The translations under genes were made by a program, and so were the position numbers. This document shows positions 44,501 to 59,016 of a DNA stretch of 64,000 bases, piece by piece. Every line of letters starts with the position of its first letter. Position 1 is the first letter of the stretch. Under the pieces are notes generated by a model. The model saw only the letters and a program-made list of their open reading frames with translations. It had not been told where the DNA came from and did no database searches. Origin of the DNA: a virus (taxonomy: Duplodnaviria; Caudoviricetes). The DNA is taken from IMG/VR virus record IMGVR_UViG_3300029305_003514, positions 98,355-162,354 of that record, one strand, 5' to 3'.

Positions 44501-45492
44501 CTGTTAAATTTACAAATGCAAATAGTATTGCCTCGCCCACCTTAAACGTAAACGGAACAGGCGCAAAGCCTATTTATCGATATGGGACAACTGCTGTAAG
44601 TACAGGCACAACCACTACAGGTTGGATAGCAGGTGCTGTTCAAATGTTTACTTATGATGGCACTGCTTGGATTAGAGATTATTGGAATAACACAACTTAT
44701 TCTAATGTCTCTCTTGGTCAGGGTTATGCTACCTGCTCTACCGCAGCTGCAACCACAGCTAAGACTGCAAGTTTGTCTAGTTACGCTTTAACAACTGGCG
44801 GTATTGTAGCGGTAAAGTTTACAAACGATGTTCCTGAAGGAGCAACGCTTAATATCAACAGCAAGGGCGCAAAAGCTATTTACCATAGAGGGGCAAAAAT
44901 TGCGGCTGGTGTTATTAAAGCCGGAGATACTGCAACCTTTATTTATAGTAGTTATTATCACTTACTCTCTATTGACAGAGATGAAGATAATACTACCACA
45001 CTTTCTGATTTAGGCGTAACAGCTACTGCTTCCGAACTAAATGTGCTTGATGGTATTACCGCCACTGTTACAGAGCTTAATTATATAGACGGCGTTACTT
45101 CTAATATTCAAACTCAGTTAAATGGAAAAGCACCTACTAGTCATGCTTCTACTGCTACAACTTATGGTGCGGCATCTGCATCCAATTATGGACACGCAAT
45201 GGCTTCTTCTACTACACCTAAGGCCAACGGAACTGCTGCTGTAGGTTCTGAAACAGCTAAGTTTGCAAGAGGAGACCATGTTCACCCACTTCAGACGACA
45301 GTTAGTGGAAACGCGGGCACTGCAACCAAGCTTGCATCTGCAAAGACCATTACACTTTCTGGTGATATTTCTGGTAGTGTTTCTTTTGACGGTTCTACTA
45401 ATGTAACAATAACAACTGCTATTACTGATGCTTTAACGCAGAAAGTAATCGCTGCACTACCAATTTATAACGGAGAGGAAGTTGAAGTATGA
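38575..45492 (+). CDS. Long modular tail fibre, 2305 aa
   Basis: Thr/Ser/Ala-rich; repeated AGLMS..DK.KLDGIA, HP.YTAK..GLYKVTVD and ELNYVDGVTSNIQTQL modules; HTH/HSH knots. Confidence 0.85.
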   Translation: MALFKISKGLKANLPSTKTEGFCYYTTDDSLFYIDYKDTNGNLQRKPLNAKEAEKLSGASLATILNSSNIEIPTSKAVLDALKEKEVFMAIVGETTYQEVVDAANAGRVVQAADENGIIHNLAMVSGDGCVFTQTDASSVYALIVTSENYWQTGLIPLVTQESFDSQLAESLANKANISHTHDDRYYTETEINSKLSGKADKEHTHSYVPTSRTVNGKALSSNIALSASDVGALPSDTEIPNALSDLTADSTHRTVTDAEKATWNAKSNFSGSYNDLTNKPTIPSISGLAATSYVDAQDSATLASAKSYIDDEIDALGDTYYTEDEIDAKVATINSSISGKANATHSHDNATTTSAGFMSKDDKTKLNNIAAGAEVNQNAFSNVVVGSTTIAADSKTDSLTIAAGTGISVSGDATNDKVTITNSGVRSISTGGTNGTISVNTNGSSKEVAVKGLGSAAYTASTAYDAAGTAQTKADAALASAKTYADGIKNELLNGAGDAYDTLKELGDLIDNNADAIDALETIAAGKADQTHSHAISEVSGLQSALDGKAASSHGTHVSYSTTAPVMDGSASAGSANTVARSDHKHPTDTSRAAKTDLDTHTGNTTLHITSTERTNWGTAYTHSQAAHAPSNAEKNQNAFSNVTVGSTTIAADSVTDTLTIAAGSNVTITPDATNDKITISATDTVYTHPTYTAKNNGLYKVTVDSTGHVSGTAAVAKADITALGIPAQDTTYSAATQSAAGLMSVDDKKKLDGIATGATANTGTITGVSANGTSVATSGVANIPAATTSKYGVTKLSSSTSSTSTSLAATPSAVKAAYDLAASKADTTAATTEAAGLMSAADKTKLDGIATGATANIGTITGVSVNGTSVATSGAANIPAASTSAYGATKLSSSVSSTSEVLAATPKAVKTAYDLAASKASTSVATTSANGLMSSDDKTKLDGIATGANKYTHPSYTAKSSGLYKVTVDSSGHVSGTSAVTKSDITALGIPAQDTTYTLGSFGVTATAAELNKLDGITATTTELNYVDGVTSNIQTQLDSKAKKTAGIFYIEGTGSTAGTWLGSHPDITEYYDGLMIAYKVGVAGASTTTLNINDLGAVTVVRNVTTAVSTAYAVDVIVFLTYTTDSSGKAYWKIAEYDSDSKTRSSNKTGSKMFLIGATSQSSSGQTTYSNSNCYIGTDNCLYSGGAKVSTTDTNTTYTLTKDGSTITLTGSDGSTTSVTDADTNTTSFTITAEAGDDDVVVLSGTSGTNKVNYTASHAKKGPSTTTSTTKGATSNVTISGSGASGSIKIPKVTTDMYGHTTGLTEQTLSITMPTLPTALKNPTALTVGSKSYDGSSAIEITAADLGLASAMKFLGTSATAITDGATTNPITIGSTSTTVTSGNVVLYGSKEFVWNGSAWEELGNEGSYKVVQAAVASPSASGTATAFIDTISQDTNGKITATKKNVTSASASASGLMSSAHYSKLEGIEAGANKYSHPTYTAKSSGLYKVTVDGTGHVSAATAVAKSDITALGIPAQDTTYSAASQSAAGLMSADDKKKLDGIAAGANNYTYTLPTASSSTLGGIKVGSNLSISSGTLSVPDASGSVKGVTIVYPSASCTTFSSDSGTVTPLAVQKGAKMFAITRPTSSTNKAITRYSNTTGDVQDSKIIIEDVTNSRDSSKTAQVIAIPAEGGKKMVYGYCTDQVDGTSFIGGVFDQSATEYPYNQGLAIGGTSGNLLWKGVKVATVNDLPTVSLSALGITATAAELNKMDGVTATTAELNYVDGVTSNIQTQLNNKASTASATQSAAGLMSAADKKKLDGIASGANAYTLPAATSSTLGGVKTTSTVTSVSGLTPVPIIDGVPYYKDTNTTYSAATTSAAGLMSAADKAKLDGIAENANNYTYTLPAAGSSLGGVKSGGDVTISNGVITVSDDSHNHVISNVDGLQTALDGKAASDHIHYYGVCGTAADTVAKEVTVSSTFKLVEGAQVTVKFTNANSIASPTLNVNGTGAKPIYRYGTTAVSTGTTTTGWIAGAVQMFTYDGTAWIRDYWNNTTYSNVSLGQGYATCSTAAATTAKTASLSSYALTTGGIVAVKFTNDVPEGATLNINSKGAKAIYHRGAKIAAGVIKAGDTATFIYSSYYHLLSIDRDEDNTTTLSDLGVTATASELNVLDGITATVTELNYIDGVTSNIQTQLNGKAPTSHASTATTYGAASASNYGHAMASSTTPKANGTAAVGSETAKFARGDHVHPLQTTVSGNAGTATKLASAKTITLSGDISGSVSFDGSTNVTITTAITDALTQKVIAALPIYNGEEVEV

Positions 45493-46856
45493 GTAAATTT
45501 AAATTTAAATTAACTCCCGGCAAGGCGACTAGTTTAATAACTACAGGTAAATATTGCGATCGTGATATACTCTTTGGTGCTACTGATAGTAATTTTTTTA
45601 CTAATCAGTTACCAATTTCTACTGATACCGACGGAACTATATATAATGGGACTGGTTATAAATATGGACAGCGTTTAAGTAGTAGCGGTACATTAGGAAA
45701 TCAAAACAATTCTTATGTCACTGGATTTATCCCCTGTAAGGTCGGAGACATTATTCGCATGAGAAATATGAAATACCAAAAAACTACTATAGATGGTAGT
45801 GTGGCTCCTGGAAATCAGCGTATTACTTTTTATGATTCTAATAAACAACCATTAGCAACATCATCAACTAATACTGCTATTTTTCAAATTAATACTCAAG
45901 GACTTGGCGGTGTAGCGAATGGAATTTATGATAGTAATGATTGTGGAATACAATGGACTATAAGATCTAATATGTTTGCTAATACATCAAAAATTGCTTA
46001 TTTTAGATTGAATGCTAGAGAAATTGGGCCTAATTCTATCATTACTGTTAATGAAAATATTCCATATGTAAATCAATTACCTCTTTCATTAGATACTAGT
46101 GGCACTCTTTATGAAGATGGTTGGGGATATAAATACGATACTCGTCTTAATTCTTCAAATGTAGAGACTGCCGCTGCTGGTTGGGATTTAACTGGTTATA
46201 TCCCTTGTAAAACAGGCGATGTTATTAGAATGAAAAATATACAATTTTTAGATCTGGATGGTACCGGGGGAGAATATTCAAGAGCGGGAGTAACTCTTTT
46301 TGATTCTTCTTTTAATTATGTGGATAAGTCTGCAAATTATACCCCAACGTCTCTTCCTTCTTCAGCATGGAATGCCGTTTATAATGATAGAGGTGACTTA
46401 ATTCAGTTTACCGTACCAACATCATACAGCTCATCTACTGCATATATAAGAATTTGTGCAAGAGATATTAGACCAAATGCTATTATTACTGTAAATGAAA
46501 AAATAGTTGAGATGACTTTTGATACAGGTATTCAAACTACTAATGTTACAATGAGTATTGGTGGCGGATATACTGATGTATTCTATACTAAATATAGTAA
46601 TTCCAACTCTTCTCCAGAATACTTTTATTCACCTGATGATGTTCCCGTAGATTATAATCTTAATAATGTTTTAGTAGGCTCAAGCATAGTAGTAACTTGT
46701 AATACTAATGCTACAGTGGATTATTCCGGCGGTGTAAATTTAGTTTTAACAGGTACAACTCTTTCAGCATATAACGGAGTTCAATATTATATATTCGCTG
46801 TTACTTCTGCAGACGATGGATTTATTTTTATTGAAGGCGAAGGAGAATGGGAGTAA
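45489..46856 (+). CDS. Tail-associated protein with an internally duplicated ~150-aa domain
   Basis: NQLP.S.DT.GT.Y...GYKY..RL.SS...TG(F/Y)IPCK.GD.IRM.N occurs twice. Confidence 0.65.
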   Translation: MSKFKFKLTPGKATSLITTGKYCDRDILFGATDSNFFTNQLPISTDTDGTIYNGTGYKYGQRLSSSGTLGNQNNSYVTGFIPCKVGDIIRMRNMKYQKTTIDGSVAPGNQRITFYDSNKQPLATSSTNTAIFQINTQGLGGVANGIYDSNDCGIQWTIRSNMFANTSKIAYFRLNAREIGPNSIITVNENIPYVNQLPLSLDTSGTLYEDGWGYKYDTRLNSSNVETAAAGWDLTGYIPCKTGDVIRMKNIQFLDLDGTGGEYSRAGVTLFDSSFNYVDKSANYTPTSLPSSAWNAVYNDRGDLIQFTVPTSYSSSTAYIRICARDIRPNAIITVNEKIVEMTFDTGIQTTNVTMSIGGGYTDVFYTKYSNSNSSPEYFYSPDDVPVDYNLNNVLVGSSIVVTCNTNATVDYSGGVNLVLTGTTLSAYNGVQYYIFAVTSADDGFIFIEGEGEWE

Positions 46857-47039: not shown

Positions 47040-47912
47040 TTGGCAAATTTAACATTAACATTGCCCGCTGGCATACCTATTTGTAGCGGCAAACAGGTAA
47101 CATTTAAAGCTCCTTGTGATTGCACGGATGTGCAAGCTATTATTATTAATGATGTTACATATGCTTTAGTTGATTCAAATAAAAGTGAAATTTCTAGTTG
47201 TGGCAATTTATTCTGCAAGGATGCTTATGTTTCTGTTTTACTTGATTGTGAAAATAATTTAGCATATGTTCATACTGGCGGAGGTAGTGGTAATTCATTA
47301 TTAATAAAAAATATTAATGTACCACTAGATAGTTTTTCTGCATATACTCCTGATGCTAATATTGAAGAAGAAAATTTATTTAATTTAGGCTATAAATACA
47401 AGGCCGTTGTTGCAATAGAAAATGCAAAAGAAGTAATGATTCCTGATGTTACTTTTTCTGTATCTAATTTAGAAGCTTCAGGCGTTGATATAGCTAATCA
47501 GGTAAATTGCTGCAATGGTAGTATTCATATATATGCTACTGGTATTCCTAATAATGATATAAAAATATTAACTTTAGAATTAAGTTGGAATGAAAAAGTT
47601 GTTAATGTAAGCAATATTTTAACTCCAGATGATATAGGCGCTATTTCCGTAAACCAAAAAGGTGTTGCTAATGGTGTTGCCACTCTTGATGCTAACGGAA
47701 AGTTAGTTCAGATGCCCACTGCCGAAGATATTAGTACAATACTCGAAGGGACGAATATAGGTGCAGTAAAAAGTGTAAATGGACAGATAGGCGAAGTGAT
47801 ATTAACTCCAGAAAATATAGGTGCTGCTCCTTCTAATCTTTATGGTACGGAAGAGTTGATTACAGGAGTTTCTGAACTTGCAGACGGTGTAATCTATTGT
47901 ATGTATGAATAA
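47040..47912 (+). CDS. Fibre-associated protein
   Basis: KGVANGVATLDANGK and VKSVNGQIGEVILT fibre motifs. Confidence 0.65.
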   Translation: MANLTLTLPAGIPICSGKQVTFKAPCDCTDVQAIIINDVTYALVDSNKSEISSCGNLFCKDAYVSVLLDCENNLAYVHTGGGSGNSLLIKNINVPLDSFSAYTPDANIEEENLFNLGYKYKAVVAIENAKEVMIPDVTFSVSNLEASGVDIANQVNCCNGSIHIYATGIPNNDIKILTLELSWNEKVVNVSNILTPDDIGAISVNQKGVANGVATLDANGKLVQMPTAEDISTILEGTNIGAVKSVNGQIGEVILTPENIGAAPSNLYGTEELITGVSELADGVIYCMYE

Positions 47913-47924
47913 GGCGGTGGAAGT

Positions 47925-49094
47925 ATGGCTAAATCGTCTTATATAGGTGTCGATGGTATATCAAAAAAAGTTAAGAAAATATATATAGGTATAGATGGTA
48001 TTGCCCGCAAGGTTAAAAAAGCTTGGATTGGTATTAATGGTATAGCTAGATTATTTTTTAGCGGTAATGAGCTTAGCTATTATGGAACAACATTAAAACC
48101 ATTAAGTGCAGCAAGGTATGGTTTAGCAGCCACTACAGTTGGAGATTATGCTTTATTTGCAGCATCAGGTAATACTCCCACGGCGGCTATTGTGGACGCT
48201 TATGGCAAAGATTTAATGCATTATATACCTAAAGAGCAATTAAGCATAGCTAAATTTAATTTAGCAGCAACTACATTTGGAAATTATGCTTTATTTGGTG
48301 GTGGAAGAAAAGCTGATTCATCTATTATACCAATGAATACTGTAGAATATTATGATAAAGATTTGATGCGCGGAACATTAGAGTTCTCTTTAAGTGTAGC
48401 CAGACATAATTTAGCAGCAACTGCTACAGAAGATTATGCATTTTTTGGAGGCGGAACTGGGGATAATTCAACCTACACTAATACAGTAGATGTATATGAT
48501 AGAGATTTAATCAGATTTGATTCTGATAAACCATTAAGTATACCAAGGTGTAGTTTGGCTGCAGTCTCTATTGGAGATTATGCTGTATTTGGCGGAGGAC
48601 ATAGTGGGCTCGGTGCACCTTCTAATGTTATAGATGCGTTTAACGGACTAACTCGTTTAACATCTACTATAGATCCATTAAGTATAGCAAGAAGTGGCCT
48701 AGCAGTAGCCACTGTGGGAAATTATATTTTATTTGCTGGCGGTAATAAACACGAAGCTAATATAAGATTAGATACTGTAGATGTGTATGATAAAGATTTA
48801 ATTCGTTCAACATCCACTATAGAATCATTAAGTGTAGCAAGGTATGAGTTAGCAGCCACTACAGTTGGAGATTATGCTTTATTTGGCGGTGGTATATCAA
48901 CATCAATTGATGGTGTCGAAGTTGATACTATTGATGTATATGATGCATTGCTAATAAGAACTGTAGAGTCTTTAAGTGCAGCAAGGTATGGTTTAGCAGC
49001 CACTACAGTTGGAGATTATGCTTTATTTGGTGGCGGTAGAAAAATATCAGATAATAACGTATTAGATATAGTAGATGTCTATCAGATTTCTTAA
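47925..49094 (+). CDS. Kelch-like beta-propeller protein (putative receptor-binding)
   Basis: Seven repeats of LS.AR..LAATTVGDYALFGGG...VDVYD; N-terminal YIGVDG..KKVKK repeats. Confidence 0.8.
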   Translation: MAKSSYIGVDGISKKVKKIYIGIDGIARKVKKAWIGINGIARLFFSGNELSYYGTTLKPLSAARYGLAATTVGDYALFAASGNTPTAAIVDAYGKDLMHYIPKEQLSIAKFNLAATTFGNYALFGGGRKADSSIIPMNTVEYYDKDLMRGTLEFSLSVARHNLAATATEDYAFFGGGTGDNSTYTNTVDVYDRDLIRFDSDKPLSIPRCSLAAVSIGDYAVFGGGHSGLGAPSNVIDAFNGLTRLTSTIDPLSIARSGLAVATVGNYILFAGGNKHEANIRLDTVDVYDKDLIRSTSTIESLSVARYELAATTVGDYALFGGGISTSIDGVEVDTIDVYDALLIRTVESLSAARYGLAATTVGDYALFGGGRKISDNNVLDIVDVYQIS

Positions 49095-49108
49095 AGGAGG
49101 AATTTACA

Positions 49109-49468
49109 ATGGCAAGATATGCAATTTGGGACAAAATAAGCCCTATGATTACCCCTGTTGGCAAAATACTTTCAGCCGAACAGTGGAAGGAACGTTATCC
49201 TGTGGCAACGCTTGATAATATTAAAGTTGTTTGTGGTGGTGGAGAAATTAATGGTTCTTTCTTTAGTACTTTTGGTCAAATGATTGAAATGTATACAAAA
49301 TTAGGTTGTGATTTTTCTGATTGCGAAGCCGATCAGGATTATTTAAATGCGATTGAAGCTTTTGAAGATGAGATGAATAAACCGTCTACCGAACCTACTA
49401 CTGACGAGCGCATTGCTGCAGCACTCGAATATCAGGTAATGATGAGTTTACCTGATGAGGAAGCATAA
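49109..49468 (+). CDS. Putative fibre chaperone
   Basis: C-terminal PTTDERIAAALEYQ; directly precedes an XkdX-like gene. Confidence 0.55.
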   Translation: MARYAIWDKISPMITPVGKILSAEQWKERYPVATLDNIKVVCGGGEINGSFFSTFGQMIEMYTKLGCDFSDCEADQDYLNAIEAFEDEMNKPSTEPTTDERIAAALEYQVMMSLPDEEA

Positions 49469-49480
49469 GGAGGCATATAT

Positions 49481-49612
49481 ATGAATTTCGAAACTATTAA
49501 GAGAAATTATGAACATAAACTTTGGAATAAAGCTATGGTAAAAATGGCTGTAAAAAAAGGTGTTATTACTAAAGAAGAATATAAGAAAATAGTTGGAGAA
49601 AATTATAATTAA
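49481..49612 (+). CDS. XkdX-family small protein, 43 aa (below track cutoff)
   Basis: AAGGAGG RBS; MNFETIKRNYEHKLWNKAMVKMAVKKGVITKEEYKKIVGENYN. Confidence 0.8.
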   Translation: MNFETIKRNYEHKLWNKAMVKMAVKKGVITKEEYKKIVGENYN

Positions 49613-49623
49613 ATATAAAGAAT

Positions 49624-50871
49624 GTGAGAATAATGGTAACTAATTTAAATTTATCTCGTAAAATTAAAAGTTTCGTATTGCAATTAATTTTAGAAGTATT
49701 AGATCGTCCACAAGATAAACTTAAATTTATTCATATCACTGGAACAAATGGTAAGGGCTCTACGGCCGCAATGTTATCTAAAATTCTTGAGGATGCAGGA
49801 TATAAAGTTGGTCTATATACTAGCCCGCATATTCGCTTTGTTAATGAGCGCATTCAAATTAATTCCAGTCCTATTCCTATGTTAGAACTGAGGCAATTAG
49901 AGCAGGAAGTCAAATCAATATATTTACGATTTGGAGTTACACCAACGGAAGGATTTTCACAAACAGCGATAGCATTAAAATATTTTGCAGATAATAATGT
50001 TGATATAGTAGTTTTTGAATCTCATATTGGCGGTTTATACGATCCAACAAATATAATTAAAAATACAGAAGTAGCAGTATTAACTGATATTGACGCCGAT
50101 CATTTTGATGTATTAGGTGATACAATTGAGGATATTGCTACAAATAAATCTTATATAATTAAAGAGAATTCTAGTGTAGTGTTATATCCATCTAAACATA
50201 ATTCAGTAATTGAAATAATTAAAGAAAAGAGTATTGGTCATAAATTAACAATATCGGATTTTTCGGCATTATGTATTAAGAAAAATGATATGAATGGATT
50301 AATAGTAGATTATAAAAATTATAAAGATATTAACCTTCCGTTGTTAGGAGAATATCAAAGTAAAAATTTAGCAGTTGTAATAGATACAATTGAGTTTTTG
50401 ATAAATAAAGGTTATAACATATCTAAAGATAATATTTATAATGGTATTAAAAATACTAAATGGCCTGGACGTTTTGAAATTAGAGATAATATGGTATTAG
50501 ATGTTGCTCATAATCCACAAGGGCTACAAGTGTTGCTCGATTCTATTAATTATTATTTGCCAAATAAAAAGAATATTTTTGTTTTTGGTAATTATACCAA
50601 TCATGATTATAAAGAAATGTTGAGAATGATAGAAGAAAGTGGAGCAGAATTTGTTTATTTTCTTAAAGGTCGCCTCAAAAGAGAAGTAAATCCTGAAGTT
50701 TTATCCGAAAATTATAGCGGAGAACATATGGTTTGTGATTCAATAGATCAAGTATTTAAGTTATTATCTAATTATGATAAAGATAAATATAATATTATTA
50801 TTACTGGTTCCTTTCCTGTCGTTGCAATGGCTAAAAATATTATAGAAAGGGGCATAAAACGATGTATTTAA
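49624..50871 (+). CDS. FolC-like (folylpolyglutamate synthase/Mur-ligase family) protein, copy 1, divergent
   Basis: IHITGTNGKGST, GLYTSPH, NERI, FE..IGGLYDPTN, DH..LGDT, WPGRFE, LDVAHNPQG. Confidence 0.85.
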   Translation: MRIMVTNLNLSRKIKSFVLQLILEVLDRPQDKLKFIHITGTNGKGSTAAMLSKILEDAGYKVGLYTSPHIRFVNERIQINSSPIPMLELRQLEQEVKSIYLRFGVTPTEGFSQTAIALKYFADNNVDIVVFESHIGGLYDPTNIIKNTEVAVLTDIDADHFDVLGDTIEDIATNKSYIIKENSSVVLYPSKHNSVIEIIKEKSIGHKLTISDFSALCIKKNDMNGLIVDYKNYKDINLPLLGEYQSKNLAVVIDTIEFLINKGYNISKDNIYNGIKNTKWPGRFEIRDNMVLDVAHNPQGLQVLLDSINYYLPNKKNIFVFGNYTNHDYKEMLRMIEESGAEFVYFLKGRLKREVNPEVLSENYSGEHMVCDSIDQVFKLLSNYDKDKYNIIITGSFPVVAMAKNIIERGIKRCI

Positions 50872-52160
50872 AACCGTTTTGTTATCCTGATTTAGAAATA
50901 ACAGATGAAGAAACTAAAAGAAAAATTCGTTTATATTCTCTCTCTATAGCTTTAGATTTAATGGGTAATCCACAAGATAAATTAAAGTTTATTCATATGA
51001 CTGGAACGAATGGCAAGGGTTCAACAAGCGCTATGATAGCCTCTATATTACAGGCAGCAGGTTATAAAGTTGGGTTATTTACTTCTCCGCATATTAAAGA
51101 AATTAATGAAAATATTCAAATTAATTTTGAACCAATTTCTTTTGAAGATATGACACGTATCGAAACCGAAGTCTATAAAATTTTTAATGATATTCATTCA
51201 AAACCTTTTGCTAATGCGGTTCGTGCAGCAATTGCTATAAAATATTTTGCAGAACAAAATGTAGATATTGTAGTATTTGAAGTTGGCGCAGGGGGTAAAA
51301 ACGATCCTACAAATGTAATTGCTACTACTGAAGCGGCTGTTATGGTTAATATGGAAATTGATCATACAAATTTATTTGGTGATACTTTAGAAGAAATTAC
51401 TTATAATAAAGCGCATATATTAAAACCTGGTTGTGATTTTATTTTATATCCATCTTATCAAATTGTTGAAGATGTAATGCGTAAAGCTTGTGCAGACTTT
51501 AATATTCCTTTTCACAAGGCAGACTTTTCACAGTTAACAATATTAAGAAATGATCTTCATGGTCAAATAATTAATTATAAAGATTATGAAAGAATATGTT
51601 TGCCACTATTAGGAGACCATCAGCCTTATAATATGGCGACTGCAATAGAAGTTATTGAAGTATTGATTAATAGAGGCTGGAGTATTTCTAAAAAAGATAT
51701 TTATTATGGTCTATCAAAGTTAAAATGGCCAGGGCGTTTAGAAGTTTTGAGATATGCTCCCAATATTATATGTGACGCAGCTCATAATCCACAAGGATTA
51801 GAAGTATTATTTAATTCTATTGACTATTATTATCCTAATAAAAATAAACATTTTGTTTTTGGTTGTATGAGAGATAAAGATATTTTATCTATGTTGAAAT
51901 TATTAAAAAATCAAGCCACTTCTGTTTATTTTACAAAAGGAGAAGGTATTAGACCTCTTAAAGCAAATAAAGTATTAGAGCTTTATGAATCGATAGGCGG
52001 AGTCGGAGTTGCTTGTAATGATACTGCAGAGGCCGTTGATTTATGTAAGGAGCATTTAAAAACTAGTGATGATATAATGATTGGAACGGGAACTTTTCGT
52101 TTAATCGGAGATTTTAAAGATAGAGTTTTTGAAATTTATCCTCAATATGAAGAGGATTAA
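50862..52160 (+). CDS. FolC-like protein, copy 2, divergent
   Basis: IHMTGTNGKGST, GLFTSPH, FEVGAGGKNDPTN, DH..FGDT, LLGDHQ..N, WPGRLE, DAAHNPQG, FGCMRDKD. Confidence 0.88.
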   Translation: MYLKPFCYPDLEITDEETKRKIRLYSLSIALDLMGNPQDKLKFIHMTGTNGKGSTSAMIASILQAAGYKVGLFTSPHIKEINENIQINFEPISFEDMTRIETEVYKIFNDIHSKPFANAVRAAIAIKYFAEQNVDIVVFEVGAGGKNDPTNVIATTEAAVMVNMEIDHTNLFGDTLEEITYNKAHILKPGCDFILYPSYQIVEDVMRKACADFNIPFHKADFSQLTILRNDLHGQIINYKDYERICLPLLGDHQPYNMATAIEVIEVLINRGWSISKKDIYYGLSKLKWPGRLEVLRYAPNIICDAAHNPQGLEVLFNSIDYYYPNKNKHFVFGCMRDKDILSMLKLLKNQATSVYFTKGEGIRPLKANKVLELYESIGGVGVACNDTAEAVDLCKEHLKTSDDIMIGTGTFRLIGDFKDRVFEIYPQYEED

Positions 52161-52208
52161 AAAAAATATGGGAGAGATTGAAGCTCTCTTATAAAGGAGG
52201 AGTTTAAA

Positions 52209-52517
52209 ATGGCATGGGGCAATTCAAATAGCAATGAAAGATCTAAAGTAAAAACAGGAATAATTACCCTTACTGCATCTGATTGGGTTGGAGATGTCGA
52301 GCCATATTATCAGAAAATTAACTCTTTCCCAATTGGAGTTAATACCCAAATAGATTTAATACCAAACATGGCCGCGATGAGTGACATGAATATGGATAAT
52401 GTTGATATGATTTATATTCAAAATGAAAATGGTGTGGCTTCTGCCGTAGCTATAGGAGGCAAACCTACCGTTGATTTAAAAATACAAGCTAATTTTACGG
52501 AGGTAAATCCTATATGA
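52209..52517 (+). CDS. Small tail-associated beta-domain protein
   Basis: ITLTASDW...PYYQ...QIDLIPN; paralogous to 57165..57569. Confidence 0.6.
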   Translation: MAWGNSNSNERSKVKTGIITLTASDWVGDVEPYYQKINSFPIGVNTQIDLIPNMAAMSDMNMDNVDMIYIQNENGVASAVAIGGKPTVDLKIQANFTEVNPI

Positions 52518-53572
52518 GTATGATAAATGGTTTTCCAATTTATTCAATTGGTTCTTCGGTTATAAGTGGATCTAATGCCGAAATGTTTGGTACTGGCGCA
52601 GATGGCGATTTAGTTATTGCTAGTGGCGAAACCGTTACATTAAGTGTAAGCGCATCCCATCTTTCAATAGTTGAAATGAATTATAATACAATTAATATTG
52701 AAGATGGCGGCACTTTAATTTGTGATACAAATAATAATGGCCTAATACTTAGATGTAAAGGCGATTGTGTAATCAATGGCACAATTGACCAGAGCGCTAA
52801 ATCAGGTATTCCTAATCCTAGTATTTCTTTTGATTATCCAGATGAAATAGCTTGCGGCAATGGCGGCGATGGCGGCGATGGCAATCAAGATGGATTTTAT
52901 GGTAAAGCTACGGGAGGCACAGCTATGGAAGCCCACAAGGGTGGAGGCGGATGGTCTGGCGGTGGTGCAGGTGGTTGCACTTATCGTTGGAACAATGATG
53001 ACGGCGGTTCTTATGATGCTTCTGAACCTGGATTTGATGGCGGTTCGGTTAATAACATTGCCACGAACGTAAGTCTTGATGATTTATTTAAAGGTGGCGA
53101 ACCTGGTAATGCTGGTACTTATGGTGGTGGCGGTTCTGGATATTTCTCCACTAATGTTAGTAGCAGTTACACAGGAGCAGGTGCCTCTGGTGCAGGTGGC
53201 AATGCTCAAGACACATTTGGAACTAACATCAAATTCCCTGGAGGTGGCGCAGGTAACTATGGAGGCGGCGTAGTAATGCTGTATGCTGGTAGAAACTGCA
53301 CCATTAATGGTTATATTTTATGTAACGGTGGTAACGGAGGTAATGGCGGTAGTAGACCTGTAGGTAATCTCTGGGAAAACGGCGGCTCCGGTGGTGGAGG
53401 CGGCGGTGGCGGCGCTTTCTATTGTGTATATAAAGGCGCTTATACCAACTATGGTTCAGTTGATGTAAATGGTGGTTTCGGCGGCAAAGGAAATGGATTA
53501 GGCACGGATGGTGACGCAGGCACCCCGGGCTCTATTACTGTTAAAAAGTATGAAAATAGTATGACAAAGTAA
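52514..53572 (+). CDS. Glycine-rich tail/adhesin protein
   Basis: FGTGADGDL start; many GGxGG runs. Confidence 0.7.
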   Translation: MSMINGFPIYSIGSSVISGSNAEMFGTGADGDLVIASGETVTLSVSASHLSIVEMNYNTINIEDGGTLICDTNNNGLILRCKGDCVINGTIDQSAKSGIPNPSISFDYPDEIACGNGGDGGDGNQDGFYGKATGGTAMEAHKGGGGWSGGGAGGCTYRWNNDDGGSYDASEPGFDGGSVNNIATNVSLDDLFKGGEPGNAGTYGGGGSGYFSTNVSSSYTGAGASGAGGNAQDTFGTNIKFPGGGAGNYGGGVVMLYAGRNCTINGYILCNGGNGGNGGSRPVGNLWENGGSGGGGGGGGAFYCVYKGAYTNYGSVDVNGGFGGKGNGLGTDGDAGTPGSITVKKYENSMTK

Positions 53573-53595
53573 TTTAATGAAAGAGGGTTTATATT

Positions 53596-53940
53596 ATGGC
53601 AAGAGTACCCGCGAATTCTTATGGAAATGGCAGAAAATATGCCGGCGGCAATACTTTTATTAATGCTGACGGTAGCGTAGAGAAGATTTATGGTTATCAT
53701 ACTTCTCCTAGTGGAAAGGTAACTTATACCTATGAGGACGACAGCATTATTGTATTAGATGGTGCTAATTTTAAAGAAATCGGCACAATTTATAAAGATA
53801 ATAAAGTAATTTATCAGCCCAAGGCAGTAATGTCCTATATAGAGATTAAAGAAAAGGCTGCGGATCTCGCTGTGGCAGGTCGACCTATAGAAAATTACTT
53901 TATTGAAGCCGCTAAGATATTAGGCGAAGCTATGGAATAA
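53596..53940 (+). CDS. Hypothetical protein
   Basis: GAGG RBS; 114 aa. Confidence 0.6.
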   Translation: MARVPANSYGNGRKYAGGNTFINADGSVEKIYGYHTSPSGKVTYTYEDDSIIVLDGANFKEIGTIYKDNKVIYQPKAVMSYIEIKEKAADLAVAGRPIENYFIEAAKILGEAME

Positions 53941-53977: not shown

Positions 53978-54226
53978 ATGAATATGAAGAAATCTGATAA
54001 AAAGACTGAAAAACAAATTATATGTTTCTCCAAGAAAATTGTAATATCATGTATATTATTTATTGTATTATATACTATATTTCAAGTATTTGTAAGTTTC
54101 AAATTAGGAATAGAATTGACTCCCGCCTTAACTGCATGTGTATATGCTTTTTTTGGCACAGAGTTAGCTGCATGTGCTTTAATTCGTATTTTTGATTCTC
54201 GCAAAGATAATATAGATGATAAATAA
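53978..54226 (+). CDS. Two-TM membrane protein (holin-like)
   Basis: Two hydrophobic segments, FFGTELAACALI; directly precedes the endolysin. Confidence 0.6.
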   Translation: MNMKKSDKKTEKQIICFSKKIVISCILFIVLYTIFQVFVSFKLGIELTPALTACVYAFFGTELAACALIRIFDSRKDNIDDK

Positions 54227-54239
54227 TGGAGGAATTAAT

Positions 54240-55304
54240 ATGTTAACACCCGATAAAGTTAGATATGAAAATGGTGTAAAAATAAATGAGAAGATTATAC
54301 CTGATTCTGCTAGAGCATCCAGAGCTATAGCTTCTTGGGTTCCTAAGGGTGGTAAGATGAAGCCTGGGCTCAAGATGAAGCCTATCGGGGTGACTATGCA
54401 CAATACTAACGACCTTGCCAAAATACATGATGATGCTGAGCAATATACTCGTGCTACATGGCCTAATTGTAATATGGCCGGAGTAGCTGTACATTATTAT
54501 GTAGATGATACATGTGCTTGGCAGAATTTAGAAGAAGATGAGCAAGGTTGGCATGCCGCAGATGGATTTGGCCCTGGCAATACTCAAACAATTGCTATTG
54601 AGTGTATTATGGATGGCTCAGGTTCTAAAGAAGATTTAGGGGCTAGAGATAATGCTGCAAGATTGGCCGCTTCTATTCTTAAAAGACATGGGTGGACTAT
54701 AGATAATTTATACACACATAATCATTGGATGGGTCAACCTGATAAAATAGCTTATGGTGTTCGTAAAAATTGTCCTATTTTCTTGCTTCCTAAATGGGAA
54801 GAGTTTAAAAATTTAGTAAAATTTTATTTACAAAATGGTAACAAAGAAGCTCCAGTTGAGACTCAAAAGCCCGCATCTGCAACTAGCGGCCTTACTTTTA
54901 ACGATATAAAAGTTGGCGATATTCTTAATTTTAAAGGCACTGAACAATATGTAGCGTCTGGGTTAACCCAAGGCATACCTGCTAAGCCCGGCAAAGTAAA
55001 AGTAACGAAGAAATATGTAGAAGTTGCTAAACATCCTATCTTAGTAAGATCCGTAGATGATTCGGGCAAATTTATTTCAGGTGTTTTTGGATGGGTTAAT
55101 ATTGAGGATTTAGAATTAGATATTAAGTTACCATATTTAGTAAGAGTAACCGCAGATACAAAGATTTATTCTGATTCGTCAGATAAGAATGTTGCGGCTA
55201 TTATTAAAAAGGGAACTTATACAATTATACAGCAAGAAAATGGATTTGGTTTATTAAAATCTAAAGCAGGATGGATTCCCTTTTCTGATACAGAAAAGAT
55301 ATAA
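54240..55304 (+). CDS. Endolysin, Amidase_2-type N-acetylmuramoyl-L-alanine amidase
   Basis: TMHNT, HYYVDD, WHAADG, IAIEC, THNHW..KNCP; C-terminal GLLKSKAGWI cell-wall-binding module. Confidence 0.88.
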   Translation: MLTPDKVRYENGVKINEKIIPDSARASRAIASWVPKGGKMKPGLKMKPIGVTMHNTNDLAKIHDDAEQYTRATWPNCNMAGVAVHYYVDDTCAWQNLEEDEQGWHAADGFGPGNTQTIAIECIMDGSGSKEDLGARDNAARLAASILKRHGWTIDNLYTHNHWMGQPDKIAYGVRKNCPIFLLPKWEEFKNLVKFYLQNGNKEAPVETQKPASATSGLTFNDIKVGDILNFKGTEQYVASGLTQGIPAKPGKVKVTKKYVEVAKHPILVRSVDDSGKFISGVFGWVNIEDLELDIKLPYLVRVTADTKIYSDSSDKNVAAIIKKGTYTIIQQENGFGLLKSKAGWIPFSDTEKI

Positions 55305-55322
55305 ATTAAAGGAGGAAGTATT

Positions 55323-55649
55323 ATGGAGATTAACATTACTGAAGTTGTTGTTGCGCTAATTGGTTTATTAGGTACTATTATTACTGCTTTTGTTGTTCCT
55401 TGGGTAAATAGTAAGCTAAAGAATGAAAAACTTAAGACTGTTGTTGAAATTGCACGTCAGGCAGTACATGCCGCTCATGAGCTTAATATCACCAATGAAC
55501 TTGTTGAATTAGGTATGGATAAAGCTACTTATGCGTGGACTGAAGCTAAGAAAGCTCTATCTGATAAAGGCATCAAAATTGACGATGATGAACTGAAGGC
55601 TGCCATTAAGGCCGAAGTTACAAATCTAAGAAAAGATATAACTTGGTAA
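55323..55649 (+). CDS. Holin (LL-H-like)
   Basis: N-terminal TM, AVHAAHEL and AAIKAEV pattern; follows the endolysin. Confidence 0.7.
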   Translation: MEINITEVVVALIGLLGTIITAFVVPWVNSKLKNEKLKTVVEIARQAVHAAHELNITNELVELGMDKATYAWTEAKKALSDKGIKIDDDELKAAIKAEVTNLRKDITW

Positions 55650-55680
55650 TTTTATAGAAGTTAATAAGGAGGTGACTTCA

Positions 55681-56439
55681 ATGGCGTATATAATGAAACA
55701 AGAAACTCTGGATGGCATTGCTGATGCGCTTAGACTTAAAACAGGCACTGAACATGACATCCAAGCCGAAGATTTTGAAGCCACTATTTTAAGTATTAGA
55801 ACATGTGAAGATACAAATGCGGCAAAAGCAGCGGCAAAATCTGCAGCAGAGAGTGCAGAGAATGCAGAGATAAGTGCTGTTAGCGCTGATACAAGTGCGT
55901 TGGCTGCTAGTGAATCAGCAACTCGAGCAGCAGCATCGGAAGAAGTTGCTAAACAAAAGGCAGCTGAAGCTTCGGATAGTGCAGCGGCCGCATTAGAAAG
56001 TCAAAATGCCGCTAAAATTAGTGAAGATAACGCTAAAGAAAGTGAACTTATTGCTACAGCGGCAGAGGCTCACATTGTTGAAATGGAGGCCGTTGTAGTT
56101 GCTGCTGAAGCGGTTGTGGTTGCTGCTGAAGCTGTAGCTAAAGAAAGTGCAACTAATGCAAAGACCAGTGAAATTAATGCAGCAAGCAGTGAGGCCAATG
56201 CTAAAGCTAGCGAAACAATCGCAGTAGAATCGGCTACTATAGCAGAAATTGCAGCAGAGGCCGCATCTTATTACGGTGGTTTAAACTCTGAGGCGTATGC
56301 TGTTGGTACAAGAGCTGGCGTGCCTGTAACAGAAGATGATATAACTTATAATAATAATGCAAAATATTATGCTGAATTAGCAGGATCTTATATAGTTCCA
56401 ACAGCTAATGTGTTGGCTACTGCTACTATTACTGAATAA
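55681..56439 (+). CDS. Ala/Ser/Glu-rich fibre-like protein
   Basis: AAASE/NAK.SE repeats; SEAYAVG...NNAKYYAE. Confidence 0.65.
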   Translation: MAYIMKQETLDGIADALRLKTGTEHDIQAEDFEATILSIRTCEDTNAAKAAAKSAAESAENAEISAVSADTSALAASESATRAAASEEVAKQKAAEASDSAAAALESQNAAKISEDNAKESELIATAAEAHIVEMEAVVVAAEAVVVAAEAVAKESATNAKTSEINAASSEANAKASETIAVESATIAEIAAEAASYYGGLNSEAYAVGTRAGVPVTEDDITYNNNAKYYAELAGSYIVPTANVLATATITE

Positions 56440-56451
56440 GGAGTTGTTCTT

Positions 56452-56952
56452 ATGATTTTTGGAAATAAAATTGGAGGCAACTCCGCAGGAAATAAAACTT
56501 TTGTAATTGATATTAATGGCGATGAAGTTTGGGGCGTTATGGTTGACGATCCAAATATACCAGAACCTACGGCTTGTTGTACAGATGTTATGATAGGTCA
56601 AGTTTTTGTTGGGCCTGAGGGGCTTCAGGTTGGTGAAAATGATTCTCCTTGCTGTCGTGTTACAGATGGTGTTCATGAAATTGGTTCTGGAGTTGAGGTT
56701 TTATTGCGTATTGAAAAATGTGAACAATGGGATTTTAATACTCTTCATGGCATAATTGTGCAAAAGAGCACCCCTCATAAAGTTGAAAAACTAATCATGA
56801 ATAATATTGTATATGATTCTGAGGGCAATGAAATTTCAAGAGTCACAAAAGACTCTAGTACCTGTTCAATTAGATTTAATATTAAAAATGAAACTGCTGA
56901 ACCTCAGTTGCTCTACTTCTTTATTTGTAAGGAGGAGCGCCATGAAGTATAA
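56452..56952 (+). CDS. Hypothetical tail-associated protein
   Basis: AAGGAG RBS; 166 aa. Confidence 0.6.
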   Translation: MIFGNKIGGNSAGNKTFVIDINGDEVWGVMVDDPNIPEPTACCTDVMIGQVFVGPEGLQVGENDSPCCRVTDGVHEIGSGVEVLLRIEKCEQWDFNTLHGIIVQKSTPHKVEKLIMNNIVYDSEGNEISRVTKDSSTCSIRFNIKNETAEPQLLYFFICKEERHEV

Positions 56953-57172
56953 TTACGCCGTTATTAACGATATAGGTAAATGTTATGAAGTTTATAAAAC
57001 AACAAATTGTACATGTGACCAATATCATGTGCCGATACCAAGGGTAGATGTTAATTATCTATCTAAATATTATCATCCTATGCCGCAATATGTAGATGGA
57101 GATTTTGATTTTACTGGTGATTGGTATCTTGATGTAGAGCATCTGATTAAGGAGGTGGCGCAAGATGGCTAA
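56942..57172 (+). CDS. Hypothetical protein
   Basis: AAGGAGGAG RBS before ATG 56942; MKYNYAVINDIGKCYEV. Confidence 0.65.
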   Translation: MKYNYAVINDIGKCYEVYKTTNCTCDQYHVPIPRVDVNYLSKYYHPMPQYVDGDFDFTGDWYLDVEHLIKEVAQDG

Positions 57173-57569
57173 AAAAATACAAATTGTAAGTGGCAGACCT
57201 TTTCAGGCAGATTGGAATATGGAAGATGAAACTAATGTGGCTTATATTAGAAATAAACCTAAGCTATCAGATAATATTAAGTTAAAAAATATTGTATTGT
57301 CTGCTTCTGCGTGGAGCTATGATGTCCCTTATATTCAGCAGATTGAGCTTGATGTTACACCAAATAGTAAGGTTGACATACAACCTAATGTTGATGTTAT
57401 TAGCGCTACTTCTGCTGTAAATTCACATTTATTAATAAAGAATGATAATGGCAATGTAGCTATATATGCTTTAAATAATAAGCCACTTGTAGATTTAAAC
57501 TTACAATTATCTATTACCGAAGTTACAAGAGAAAATGATATAGACGTAATTTGGGGTAATGGAATTTAA
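57165..57569 (+). CDS. Small tail-associated protein, paralog of 52209..52517
   Basis: QADWN...AYIRNKP; IVLSASAW...PYIQ...KVDIQPN. Confidence 0.65.
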   Translation: MAKKIQIVSGRPFQADWNMEDETNVAYIRNKPKLSDNIKLKNIVLSASAWSYDVPYIQQIELDVTPNSKVDIQPNVDVISATSAVNSHLLIKNDNGNVAIYALNNKPLVDLNLQLSITEVTRENDIDVIWGNGI

Positions 57570-58227
57570 AGAGGTGATTACGGTGTCTATAAATGAAGTA
57601 TTAGAAATTGCTCGCAAGGAAGTAATGAGTATTACTGAATGTGATGATGGGCAGAAATTTGTGAATAAGTGTTTAGGCACCGAATTCATAGATTGCGCAG
57701 AATCATTTAGGTGGTATGAGCGCCGTGGGCGCATTTATGACGCACCTAAGCGTGGAGATCAAATATTTGTCGGTGATAGTACTGGCATTGTTGAATTGGT
57801 TTCTGGCAACGTAGTACATACAATTGAGATAGATACTGATATTGATTCTACTTTTTTTGGATTACTTCGCCGCAAAGAAAGAAATGTTGGTGAGGGCAAA
57901 TATGGTAGACCTGAATATAAATCAGTTGAATTAATTGTTGGACTTAAAGGTGAAGAAGCTAGACAGTGGCTAGATACTCAGAATATTGAGATTGAAGAAT
58001 GGAATCCTGTAAAACGTGGTGATATTGGTTTTAATGTGCAGGTTGTACAGGCCGCTTTGATTTGTTTAGGATATTCATGTGGTGAATATGGTGCTAATGG
58101 ATATTTTAATAATGATTCTGTTGATGCCGTGAAGAGATTTCAAAAAAATAATAAAATGATTTGTGACGGAATTGTTGGTAAAGCCGTTGCAATGAAACTG
58201 TTTAAGGGAATGTCTTCCTCAAAGTAG
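57559..58227 (+). CDS. Degenerate CHAP-like domain plus peptidoglycan-binding domain (start may be downstream GTG)
   Basis: PKRGDQIF..TGIVELV....HTIE...YGRPEY; C-terminal VQAAL..LGY.CG.YGANG.F...AVKRFQ....DGIVG. Confidence 0.7.
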   Translation: MEFKEVITVSINEVLEIARKEVMSITECDDGQKFVNKCLGTEFIDCAESFRWYERRGRIYDAPKRGDQIFVGDSTGIVELVSGNVVHTIEIDTDIDSTFFGLLRRKERNVGEGKYGRPEYKSVELIVGLKGEEARQWLDTQNIEIEEWNPVKRGDIGFNVQVVQAALICLGYSCGEYGANGYFNNDSVDAVKRFQKNNKMICDGIVGKAVAMKLFKGMSSSK

Positions 58228-58235
58228 TTTTATAG

Positions 58236-58267
58236 AGGGGAGGGCTTTGGCTCTCCCCTATTTTTTT
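58236..58267 (+). terminator. Intrinsic terminator
   Basis: AGGGGAGGGC-TTTG-GCTCTCCCCT-ATTTTTTT. Confidence 0.85.
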
Positions 58268-58347
58268 AATAGCTTAGGTATGAGATATGGTGTTTAATTA
58301 TGTCTGATACTTAGGCTATTTTATTACATTTAAAGGAGTGTTGTAAA

Positions 58348-59016
58348 ATGGCAAAAGTTTTTTTATCTCCTTCAAATCAGAAGGATAACAAATATGCTCA
58401 CGGAGGCGCAACAGAAGATGTAGTTTGCGGCAAAATCGCACAAGCATGCAAGAAAGCATTAGAAAGATGTGGTATTACAGTTGGTTTAAATCATTATGGA
58501 TCTTTATCTGAAAAGTGTAATGAAGCTAATAATGGTGGTTATGATGCGTTTGTAAGTATTCATACTAATGCTCATAATGGAGTAGTTACTGGAACAAGGA
58601 TGTTTACATACGGAAATGGTGTAAATGAGACTAAGTTAGCAAAATGTATATTTAATGTATTGGCTCCATATACACCTGGGACAAGCGAAAATATTAAACC
58701 TTATCCTGAACTTTATGAAATGAAGGCAACTAAGATGGCAGCAACATTAGTAGAGGTGGATTTTCACGATCATGCACAAACGGCTAAATGGTTAATTGAA
58801 CATACATCTGAGATTGGAGAAAAAATTGCCGAGGGCGTATGTCAATATTTTGGAATAAAATATGTTGCGGTTAATATCAATGTTAATGTGAACGCTAATA
58901 CTGGTTTTAAGAAATATCGTGTAGTATGCGGAAGTTTTGGACAAAGAAAAAATGCAGAAGCCAGACAAAAAGAATTAAAGGCAAAGGGTTTTGATAGTTT
59001 TATAGAGATTAAATAA
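58348..59016 (+). CDS. Amidase_3-type N-acetylmuramoyl-L-alanine amidase with C-terminal SPOR domain
   Basis: VFLSPSNQ, TE, VSIHTNA, LVEVDFHD; YRVVCGSF..RKNAE....LKAKGFDSFI. Confidence 0.85.
   Translation: MAKVFLSPSNQKDNKYAHGGATEDVVCGKIAQACKKALERCGITVGLNHYGSLSEKCNEANNGGYDAFVSIHTNAHNGVVTGTRMFTYGNGVNETKLAKCIFNVLAPYTPGTSENIKPYPELYEMKATKMAATLVEVDFHDHAQTAKWLIEHTSEIGEKIAEGVCQYFGIKYVAVNINVNVNANTGFKKYRVVCGSFGQRKNAEARQKELKAKGFDSFIEIK

Follow-up and report, generated by a model that had tools for sequence, protein, structure and literature searches.

Two overlapping FolC-family genes in a phage tail/lysis region

The DNA analyzed here (the window) comprises the final 64 kb of an IMG/VR record of a gut phage (IMGVR_UViG_3300029305_003514; 162,354 bp), which is rated 99% complete. 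All large open reading frames (ORFs) of the window are on the + strand, and two of them, designated FolC-A and FolC-B, encode proteins of the FolC family (folylpolyglutamate synthase/dihydrofolate synthase, FPGS/DHFS). An earlier note on this DNA had described two overlapping paralogous FolC-like genes at this place. This description was borne out: the ORFs are present, their products are 44% identical, and the genes overlap by 10 nt. The features of the pair are as follows.

49633..50871, + strand, FolC-A, FolC-family ligase of 412 aa (from ATG 49633)
50845..50852, + strand, ribosome-binding site of FolC-B, GAAAGGGG, inside the 3′ end of FolC-A
50862..52160, + strand, FolC-B, FolC-family ligase of 432 aa

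GTG 49624 is an alternative start of FolC-A; ATG 49633, which was called on 13 contigs and agrees with the start of the orthologue described below, is likelier. The GAAAGGGG sequence is 9 nt from the start of FolC-B, and its position within the end of FolC-A, together with the 10-nt overlap, indicates that the two genes are translationally coupled. FolC-B ends in an acidic, disordered tail (...YEED). No promoter or terminator bracketing the pair exceeded the shuffled background. The GC content at third codon positions (GC3) of the pair is 0.15, the same as that of the adjacent fibre genes. Host contamination or a prophage border was rejected as the origin of the pair since phage genes flank it in the virus record and on 13 contigs; the 10 of those contigs that are shown stem from 10 samples. 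True border cases (L028 and L029) have a canonical FolC beside host genes or an integrase.

The two proteins scored 299.5 and 304.3 bits with TIGR01499 (folC; curated cut-off, 162.65 bits). Both contain Mur_ligase_M and Mur_ligase_C of Pfam, and both belong to phrog_16655, a PHROGs family without an assigned function. Membership in PgsB/CapB (TIGR04012) was ruled out (scores of 33.6 and 34.2 bits; cut-off, 222.7), and the models of MurC-F, Mpl, cyanophycin synthetase, CfbE, and pseudomurein ligases all remained far under their cut-offs; the top Mur-type score other than folC was that of the MurE model (83 bits against a cut-off of 373). AlphaFold2 gave very confident full-length models, with pLDDT of 95.4 and 93.5 for FolC-A and FolC-B, respectively. 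When the FolC-B model was compared with PDB using Foldseek, the 17 best matches were all FPGS/DHFS structures, with TM of ca. 0.8 to 2vor, 1o5z, 1w78, and 1jbw. Both the Pfam matches and the predicted models thus display the two-domain Mur-ligase fold (one ATPase and one Rossmann-like C domain).

We aligned the pair with 119 cellular FolCs and then with 345 cellular FolC domains, including E. coli FolC, whose numbering is used throughout. The P-loop, the Ser-Pro omega loop, E146 (Mg), D154/T156/N157, D172-H173, K188, R289, D302/H305/N306, G331, and R361 were kept in both copies. In solved structures, K188 carries the carbamyl group; the pair keeps this Lys at the sequence level. All motifs quoted in the earlier note were also present, namely the P-loop, TSPH, VVFE with the Mg-binding Glu, DH, WPGR, D.AHN, TEGFSQTA/FANAVRAA, DPTN, NK, and the RKI N-terminus. 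Both copies are very likely active ATP-dependent ligases, which would attach an amino acid by way of an acyl-phosphate.

Altered pterin pocket of FolC-A and FolC-B

The T.FE region (T122-x-F124-E125 in E. coli, followed further on by D154-A155) presumably belongs to the pterin pocket, an assignment based on the M. tuberculosis residues named below and on the 1W78 and 1JBW structures. We likewise take Y414 and F75 of L. casei FolC to touch the pterin, and S150 and E153 of M. tuberculosis FolC to correspond to the T.FE motif. In the 1W78 complex, the pterin is stacked among Phe, Ala, Ile, and Leu and hydrogen-bonded to a conserved Asp (PMC4790348). S150 and E153 were assigned to the substrate-binding pocket of M. 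tuberculosis FolC from para-aminosalicylate-resistance mutations (PMC6664864).

F124 (F or Y in 341 of the 345 cellular domains) is Gly in FolC-A and Asn in FolC-B, and E125 (E or D in 336/345) is Phe and Ala, respectively. A155 (S or A in 320/345) is replaced by Pro in both copies, resulting in DPTN. G190 (G in 329/345) is Tyr in FolC-A and His in FolC-B, and the Tyr of GSLY (Y414 of L. casei by alignment; Y in 309/345) is Pro and Arg, respectively. Additionally, the N-terminal GLxR loop, which is present in cellular FolC, is missing from both. Judged by F124, E125, A155, GLxR, and Y414, neither copy has the canonical pterin/dihydropteroate pocket. Since the canonical dihydropteroate pocket is dismantled, FolC-A and FolC-B are probably not dihydrofolate synthases.

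Other changes are found in one copy only. FolC-A keeps R92, L177, and S403 and has His in place of G148 (G in 345/345) and NHD in place of the DKD motif (K336 in 339/345). FolC-B keeps G148 and DKD and has Asn, Phe, and Thr at R92, L177, and S403, respectively. As the earlier note had maintained, the pair diverges from typical FolC, and it does so far beyond ordinary variation: the altered positions include one with F in 337 and one with G in all of the 345 domains. The complementary losses of the two copies suggest a division of labour or a complex, which fits the idea of a heterodimer or an initiator/elongator pair put forward in the same note.

A phage-specific FolC clade under purifying selection

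Word-based searches of 5.8 billion proteins gave nothing above 41% identity besides the pair itself. Close relatives among isolated phages were sought using Megablast with no match, the matches of tblastn were at most 41% identical and mostly unannotated fragments, and single-sequence scans of IMG/VR gave nothing. Two further relatives, P0122 and P0128 (297 and 290 bits with TIGR01499, respectively), emerged when 1.84 billion cluster representatives were searched exhaustively with a profile. A profile scan of IMG/VR yielded only a 112-kb phage, which carries P0128, and two canonical border FolCs.

P0122 (528 bits in the profile search) is 60% identical to FolC-A and is hereafter called A′. On its short metagenome contig, genes for a 121-aa protein and XkdX precede P0122, and the next gene encodes a protein (B′) 70% identical to FolC-B. 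From this order, a diverged phage retains the same pair in the same arrangement. The peculiarities of each copy are also retained: ESHIGG..YDPTN and His at 336 in A′, and AN, KNDPTN, R92N, L177F, and NK.H in B′. The nucleotide, Mg, and carbamyl-lysine residues are intact in A, A′, B, and B′. The dN/dS values between the orthologues (A/A′ and B/B′) were 0.24–0.36, with dS near saturation. By these measures, both copies are under purifying selection.

P0128 is a protein of 432 aa in which Y-A replaces F-E and NDPTN is present. It has Thr at the otherwise invariant H305, and no Mur_ligase_C match was obtained with Pfam. It occurs on at least 24 contigs, including the 112-kb IMG/VR virus. Its operon (L017:9503-12514, identical to L027) consists of the genes for a small sigma factor, the FolC-like protein, a GH25 lysozyme, and holin 4_1; these are tightly packed, and the GH25 lysozyme gene overlaps the P0128 gene. 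The sigma factor had weak BotR and ECF-type matches, all under the cut-off. A second holin (6_1) and M23 peptidases are encoded near this operon on the opposite strand. The 21 kb of the 112-kb phage that was compared with the window phage had nothing in common with it except the FolC gene and a weakly matching holin; no partner gene common to the phage lineages was found in this range.

Two trees were constructed using the IQ-TREE quick search under LG+C20. In both, the five phage sequences grouped together as (P0128,((A,A′),(B,B′))) (SH-aLRT, 99), and this clade was not nested with support in any cellular group. The phylogeny against host FolC proposed in the earlier note as a check thus gave a phage-only clade. 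The topology places the A/B duplication inside the phage lineage, with both copies retained since then. A clade-specific profile detected no further member, the scores falling from 675 to 431 bits. A recent transfer from a host was not supported, considering the 41% identity of the nearest cellular FolC, the un-nested clade, and a GC3 like that of the fibre genes. Descent from a bacterial tandem or fused pair was rejected by the trees, in which the duplications are independent.

A variable slot between tail-fibre and lysis genes

The neighbours of the pair were compared with those in L035, a related 76-kb phage contig. The surrounding features of the window are as follows.

47040..47912, + strand, tail-fibre-like protein of 290 aa with a conserved C-terminal ...IYCMYE motif
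47925..49094, + strand, kelch-like beta-propeller protein (phrog_19111)
49109..49468, + strand, p119 (119 aa), which always precedes XkdX; left slot anchor
49481..49612, + strand, XkdX (43 aa; PF09693, 62 bits); left slot anchor
52209..53572, + strand, 102-aa protein and Gly-rich 352-aa protein, in a variable cassette with the FolC pair; missing in L035
53596..53940, + strand, p114 (114 aa), with 50% identity to its counterpart in L035; right slot anchor
53978..55649, + strand, lysis cassette composed of an 82-aa membrane protein, an Amidase_2 endolysin (54216-55304), and a holin (55323-55649)

The kelch-like protein, XkdX, and the Gly-rich protein are the neighbours that the earlier note had named; farther upstream, a 2305-aa fibre-type protein is encoded. 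L035 has the order fibre–kelch–p119–XkdX...p114, with 45–81% identity. Comparison of L035:10001-16560 with positions 47040-53940 of the window identified the stretch between XkdX and p114 as a swap site: L035 has a second p119/XkdX/kelch-like set where the window has FolC-A and FolC-B and the 102-aa and Gly-rich proteins. Because the slot of L035 lacks FolC, the FolC pair and the 102-aa and Gly-rich proteins constitute exchangeable cargo. The relatives of the pair are again in tail or lysis modules; the fibre, kelch, and XkdX genes of L035 occur without FolC in the slot. Our literature search found no papers on FolC together with a holin or endolysin.

The Gly-rich 352-aa protein (52514-53572) belongs to a sizeable, purely viral family without a Pfam model. 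Its only leads, to Mtd_N and GP38, are weak, and on these grounds it may be a receptor-binding tip. Past the holin, positions 55672-59016 encode a fibre-like 255-aa protein and lysin-like proteins (57559-58227 and 58348-59016). The tape measure gene is at 60642, and the lysis and tail genes before it are unusually interleaved.

Four tail-module proteins of the window end in Glu (45489-46856, 47040-47912, 53596-53940, and 55672-56439). Proteins ending in Glu account for 4 of 20 window proteins, which is not clearly above chance (estimated p of ca. 0.06). The ...IYCMYE terminus of the fibre-like protein is kept in three homologues. The motif NLYGT...LA(D/N)G(V/A)IY(C/L)(M/Q)YE ends exactly at the C-terminal Glu in the protein of 47040-47912 and in P0341, P0345, and P0347, and this ...YE motif is common to fibres of otherwise different lengths in several phages. 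Streptomyces phages matched the internal domain of the fibre only, and no relatives of p114 were found in the phage database. L035 carries the same fibre end with no FolC in the 10 kb downstream. L037, a 15.8-kb phage contig, has the same fibre end and ThyX, and no FolC on the recovered DNA. These two contigs indicate that the Glu-ended fibre is independent of the pair. Glutamylation of the fibre via its C-terminal Glu was thus rejected. The loss of this candidate removes the most obvious target, and some other target may be modified.

Folate-related genes in the phages and in bacteria

As previously noted, the window holds no other folate genes. The genome, however, encodes ThyX (108 bits) ca. 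70 kb before the window start. A folate operon in the phage was considered and rejected, ThyX being the sole folate-linked gene found. ThyX was also present in the 112-kb phage carrying P0128, and ThyA was not found there. ThyX uses methylene-tetrahydrofolate and regenerates tetrahydrofolate rather than dihydrofolate; therefore, a phage with ThyX needs no dihydrofolate reductase (DHFR).

The nearest cellular FolCs are those of Clostridia (38–41% identity), and many single FolCs among the matches are fused to a folate-type S component. Bacterial double-FolC proteins of ca. 870 aa were also observed (P0125–P0127 and P0135; e.g., L023:10001-12625 and L026:1630-4251). Their first module is canonical (THFEF and DATN), yet R92Y and a change of WPGR to LK(S/A)R are present; the second module has NQFA/G and DPTN and lacks the GLxR loop. 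The genes of P0125 and P0126 directly follow an ECF S-component gene, and the setting of P0125 is chromosomal. From this context, the double-FolC protein looks like an uncharacterized double enzyme of folate salvage.

A bacterial cluster (L031:1753-16221) encodes three FolC paralogues together with NUDIX, radical-SAM, gamma-glutamyltranspeptidase, circularly permuted ATP-grasp, GATase/C26, PabB/C, FolE, and FolK proteins and a 715-aa beta-propeller protein. In the middle FolC, F-E is replaced by A-Q, and KNDPTN and L177F occur as in FolC-B; its gene overlaps that of the next, canonical FolC by 11 nt. The product of this cluster may be a folate whose tail is unusual. In the trees, the bacterial variants had origins separate from one another and from the phage clade. 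Independent origins imply that the same changes recur whenever a second module of FolC arises next to an existing one; in bacteria, this has occurred in folate contexts.

Proposed role of the pair

The simplest reading is that FolC-A and FolC-B represent a FolC subtype that has moved past dihydropteroate and works further along the folate tail. Specifically, we tentatively propose, giving it somewhat less than an even chance, that the pair consists of sub-functionalised folate gamma-glutamyl ligases without dihydrofolate synthase activity that support ThyX. In this scheme, the acceptors of FolC-A and FolC-B would be pteroyl-(poly)glutamates that the host makes or imports, and their gamma-glutamyl tail would be lengthened by an added amino acid, most probably L-glutamate. 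The first step would be supplied by host FolC, and the two copies would share the labour (by chain length or folate form) or form a complex. Longer tails would keep folates in the cell to serve phage ThyX during DNA replication. The location between tail-fibre and lysis genes is that of a variable cargo slot, with no structural role.

Several observations weigh against this proposal. Both copies have lost F124, E125, A155, G190, GLxR, and the Y414 equivalent, and FolC-A has further changed the invariant G148 and the near-invariant K336. ThyX belongs to a different module, ca. 120 kb away from the pair, and the whole phage genome contained no ThyA, DHFR, FolP, FolE, SHMT, ECF transporter, or C26 gamma-glutamyl hydrolase. 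Moreover, many large phages encode ThyX, and finding it together with FolC is therefore of little weight. Each of the three known phage lineages has its FolC gene among tail or lysis genes; that of the 112-kb phage shares one tight operon with lysozyme and holin genes, which is odd for replication support.

Some of these facts would be expected if the clade had left folate chemistry and acted on another N-acylated-Glu or free-carboxylate molecule. Such an acceptor could be a tail or lysis protein with a C-terminal Glu, a polymer of the wall, or a different cofactor, to which one or more gamma-glutamyl residues or other amino acids would be added. The pocket losses affect both copies and are kept in the orthologous pair, P0128 replaces even the invariant H305, all three phage lineages have the gene in tail/lysis modules (overlapped by the GH25 lysozyme gene in the case of P0128), and several nearby tail-module proteins end in a Glu that would chemically resemble the end of a folate tail. 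On the other hand, the ...IYCMYE terminus persists in phages whose recovered DNA lacks FolC (L035 and L037), the frequency of Glu-ended proteins is by our estimate not clearly above chance, and the bacterial FolC variants with the same, convergent changes are in folate clusters. The PgsB scores are also low (33–34 against 223 bits), the Mur and cyanophycin models are far under their cut-offs, and the lineages share no partner gene within the 21 kb compared. The analysis found no positive evidence for a switch to a non-folate acceptor, and we consider such a switch unlikely. It nevertheless keeps some weight because the pocket changes exceed those of any bacterial variant and every phage copy is beside tail or lysis genes. 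The narrower version, in which an initiator and an elongator or a heterodimer gamma-glutamylates a non-folate molecule linked to the tail or lysis (e.g., the C-terminal Glu of a virion protein or a wall component), appears quite improbable to us. The earlier note had suggested that the pair may act on a non-folate substrate, for example by modifying fibre proteins. This view is unsupported in light of the fibre end that occurs without FolC, the different cargo of L035, and the folate clusters of the bacterial variants. Its designation of the pair as an undescribed system was also too strong; a phage-specific FolC variant is the more fitting description.

The same folate chemistry could instead serve the host as a "moron" of lysogenic conversion, trapping imported folate in a folate-auxotrophic Clostridia host. 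The position between tail-fibre and lysis genes is classic for such cargo, and the content of the slot varies among relatives. In addition, the nearest cellular FolCs are Clostridial, and many of them are fused to or located after folate ECF S-components, implying that such hosts rely on salvage. However, no promoter or terminator stands out, the pair is tightly packed among late genes that run in its direction, and the 112-kb phage carries its gene in the lysis operon. We regard this role as a close alternative to the main proposal, with a low probability. Finally, the copies could be non-catalytic or decaying, as a pseudoenzyme with a regulatory or structural partner role, an ATP/glutamate sensor timing lysis, or a relic. 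The altered G148 and DKD of FolC-A, the altered R92, L177, and S403 of FolC-B, and the lack of H305 and of a Mur_ligase_C match in P0128 would agree with this. In contrast, A, A′, B, and B′ all retain the residues for the nucleotide, Mg, and carbamyl-lysine, the odd residues are kept between orthologues of 60–70% identity with dN/dS of 0.24–0.36, and the full-length AlphaFold2 models are very confident. Loss of catalysis is therefore a very improbable explanation.

Comparison with known systems

A textbook enzyme, FolC is also a candidate drug target. In the present phage lineage, its catalytic machinery has remained under selection while a pocket that is near-invariant in cells was rewritten, twice, in a coupled pair. 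We found no literature on a phage-specific FolC clade, on a tandem pair, or on these pocket changes. If the substrate is a folate, the virus would tune the one-carbon cofactor pool of the host for ThyX-dependent DNA synthesis, and the pair would provide natural examples of the determinants that split tail elongation from dihydrofolate synthesis. This distinction is not derivable by comparative genomics (PMC1971073). If folate chemistry was left, the pair would be a new modification enzyme; in the narrower version described above, it would be a glutamylase of proteins or polymers derived from FolC, the first of its kind, and represent a new kind of phage-encoded post-translational modification.

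Phage-borne ThyX, ThyA, and DHFR, which support replication, resemble the pair as folate enzymes encoded by phages, and in T4 a link to the tail has been claimed. Pteroyl-hexaglutamate was reportedly present in the T4 baseplate according to Kozloff-era work, and later structures are said not to have confirmed the baseplate claims. Old reports describe T4 thymidylate synthase and DHFR as contributing to the structure of the baseplate (Kozloff et al. 1977, as mentioned in PMC7725336). folC itself is listed among the auxiliary metabolic genes of rumen viruses (PMC5704599 and PMC7725336). In L. reuteri, one of FolC and FolC2 is needed for dihydrofolate and the other adds the polyglutamate tail; these two are not orthologues (COG0285 and COG1478) (PMC5061717). 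Unlike them, the phage pair comprises two COG0285-type paralogues, neither of which resembles a dihydrofolate synthase.

Compared with bacterial FolC (1W78 of E. coli, 1JBW of L. casei, 1O5Z of T. maritima, and 2VOR of M. tuberculosis), the phage proteins are alike in the TIGR01499 score (ca. 300 bits), the fold (TM of ca. 0.8), the P-loop, the Ser-cisPro omega loop, the Mg-binding Glu, DH, the carbamyl-Lys position, WPGR, and D.AHN. They differ in the pocket residues, the GLxR loop, G190, the GSLY Tyr, and the changes specific to A or B, as well as in their tandem arrangement, tail/lysis setting, and phage-only clade. Further parallels are the bacterial variant modules, which share DPTN and the lack of the GLxR loop and the acid at E125 with the phage pair, except that FolC1 of L031 keeps E125. 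FolC2 of L031 has also lost F124 and, like FolC-B, has KNDPTN and L177F. These modules are always paired with another FolC module, either fused or overlapping by ca. 10 nt, and we found no biochemical characterization of them in the literature. In contrast to the phage pair, they have a canonical FolC and folate genes alongside and keep G190, K336, and mostly the GSLY Tyr, and several change D335. The recurrence of DPTN without GLxR and E125 in bacterial double and triple FolCs suggests an unrecognized functional subtype of FolC.

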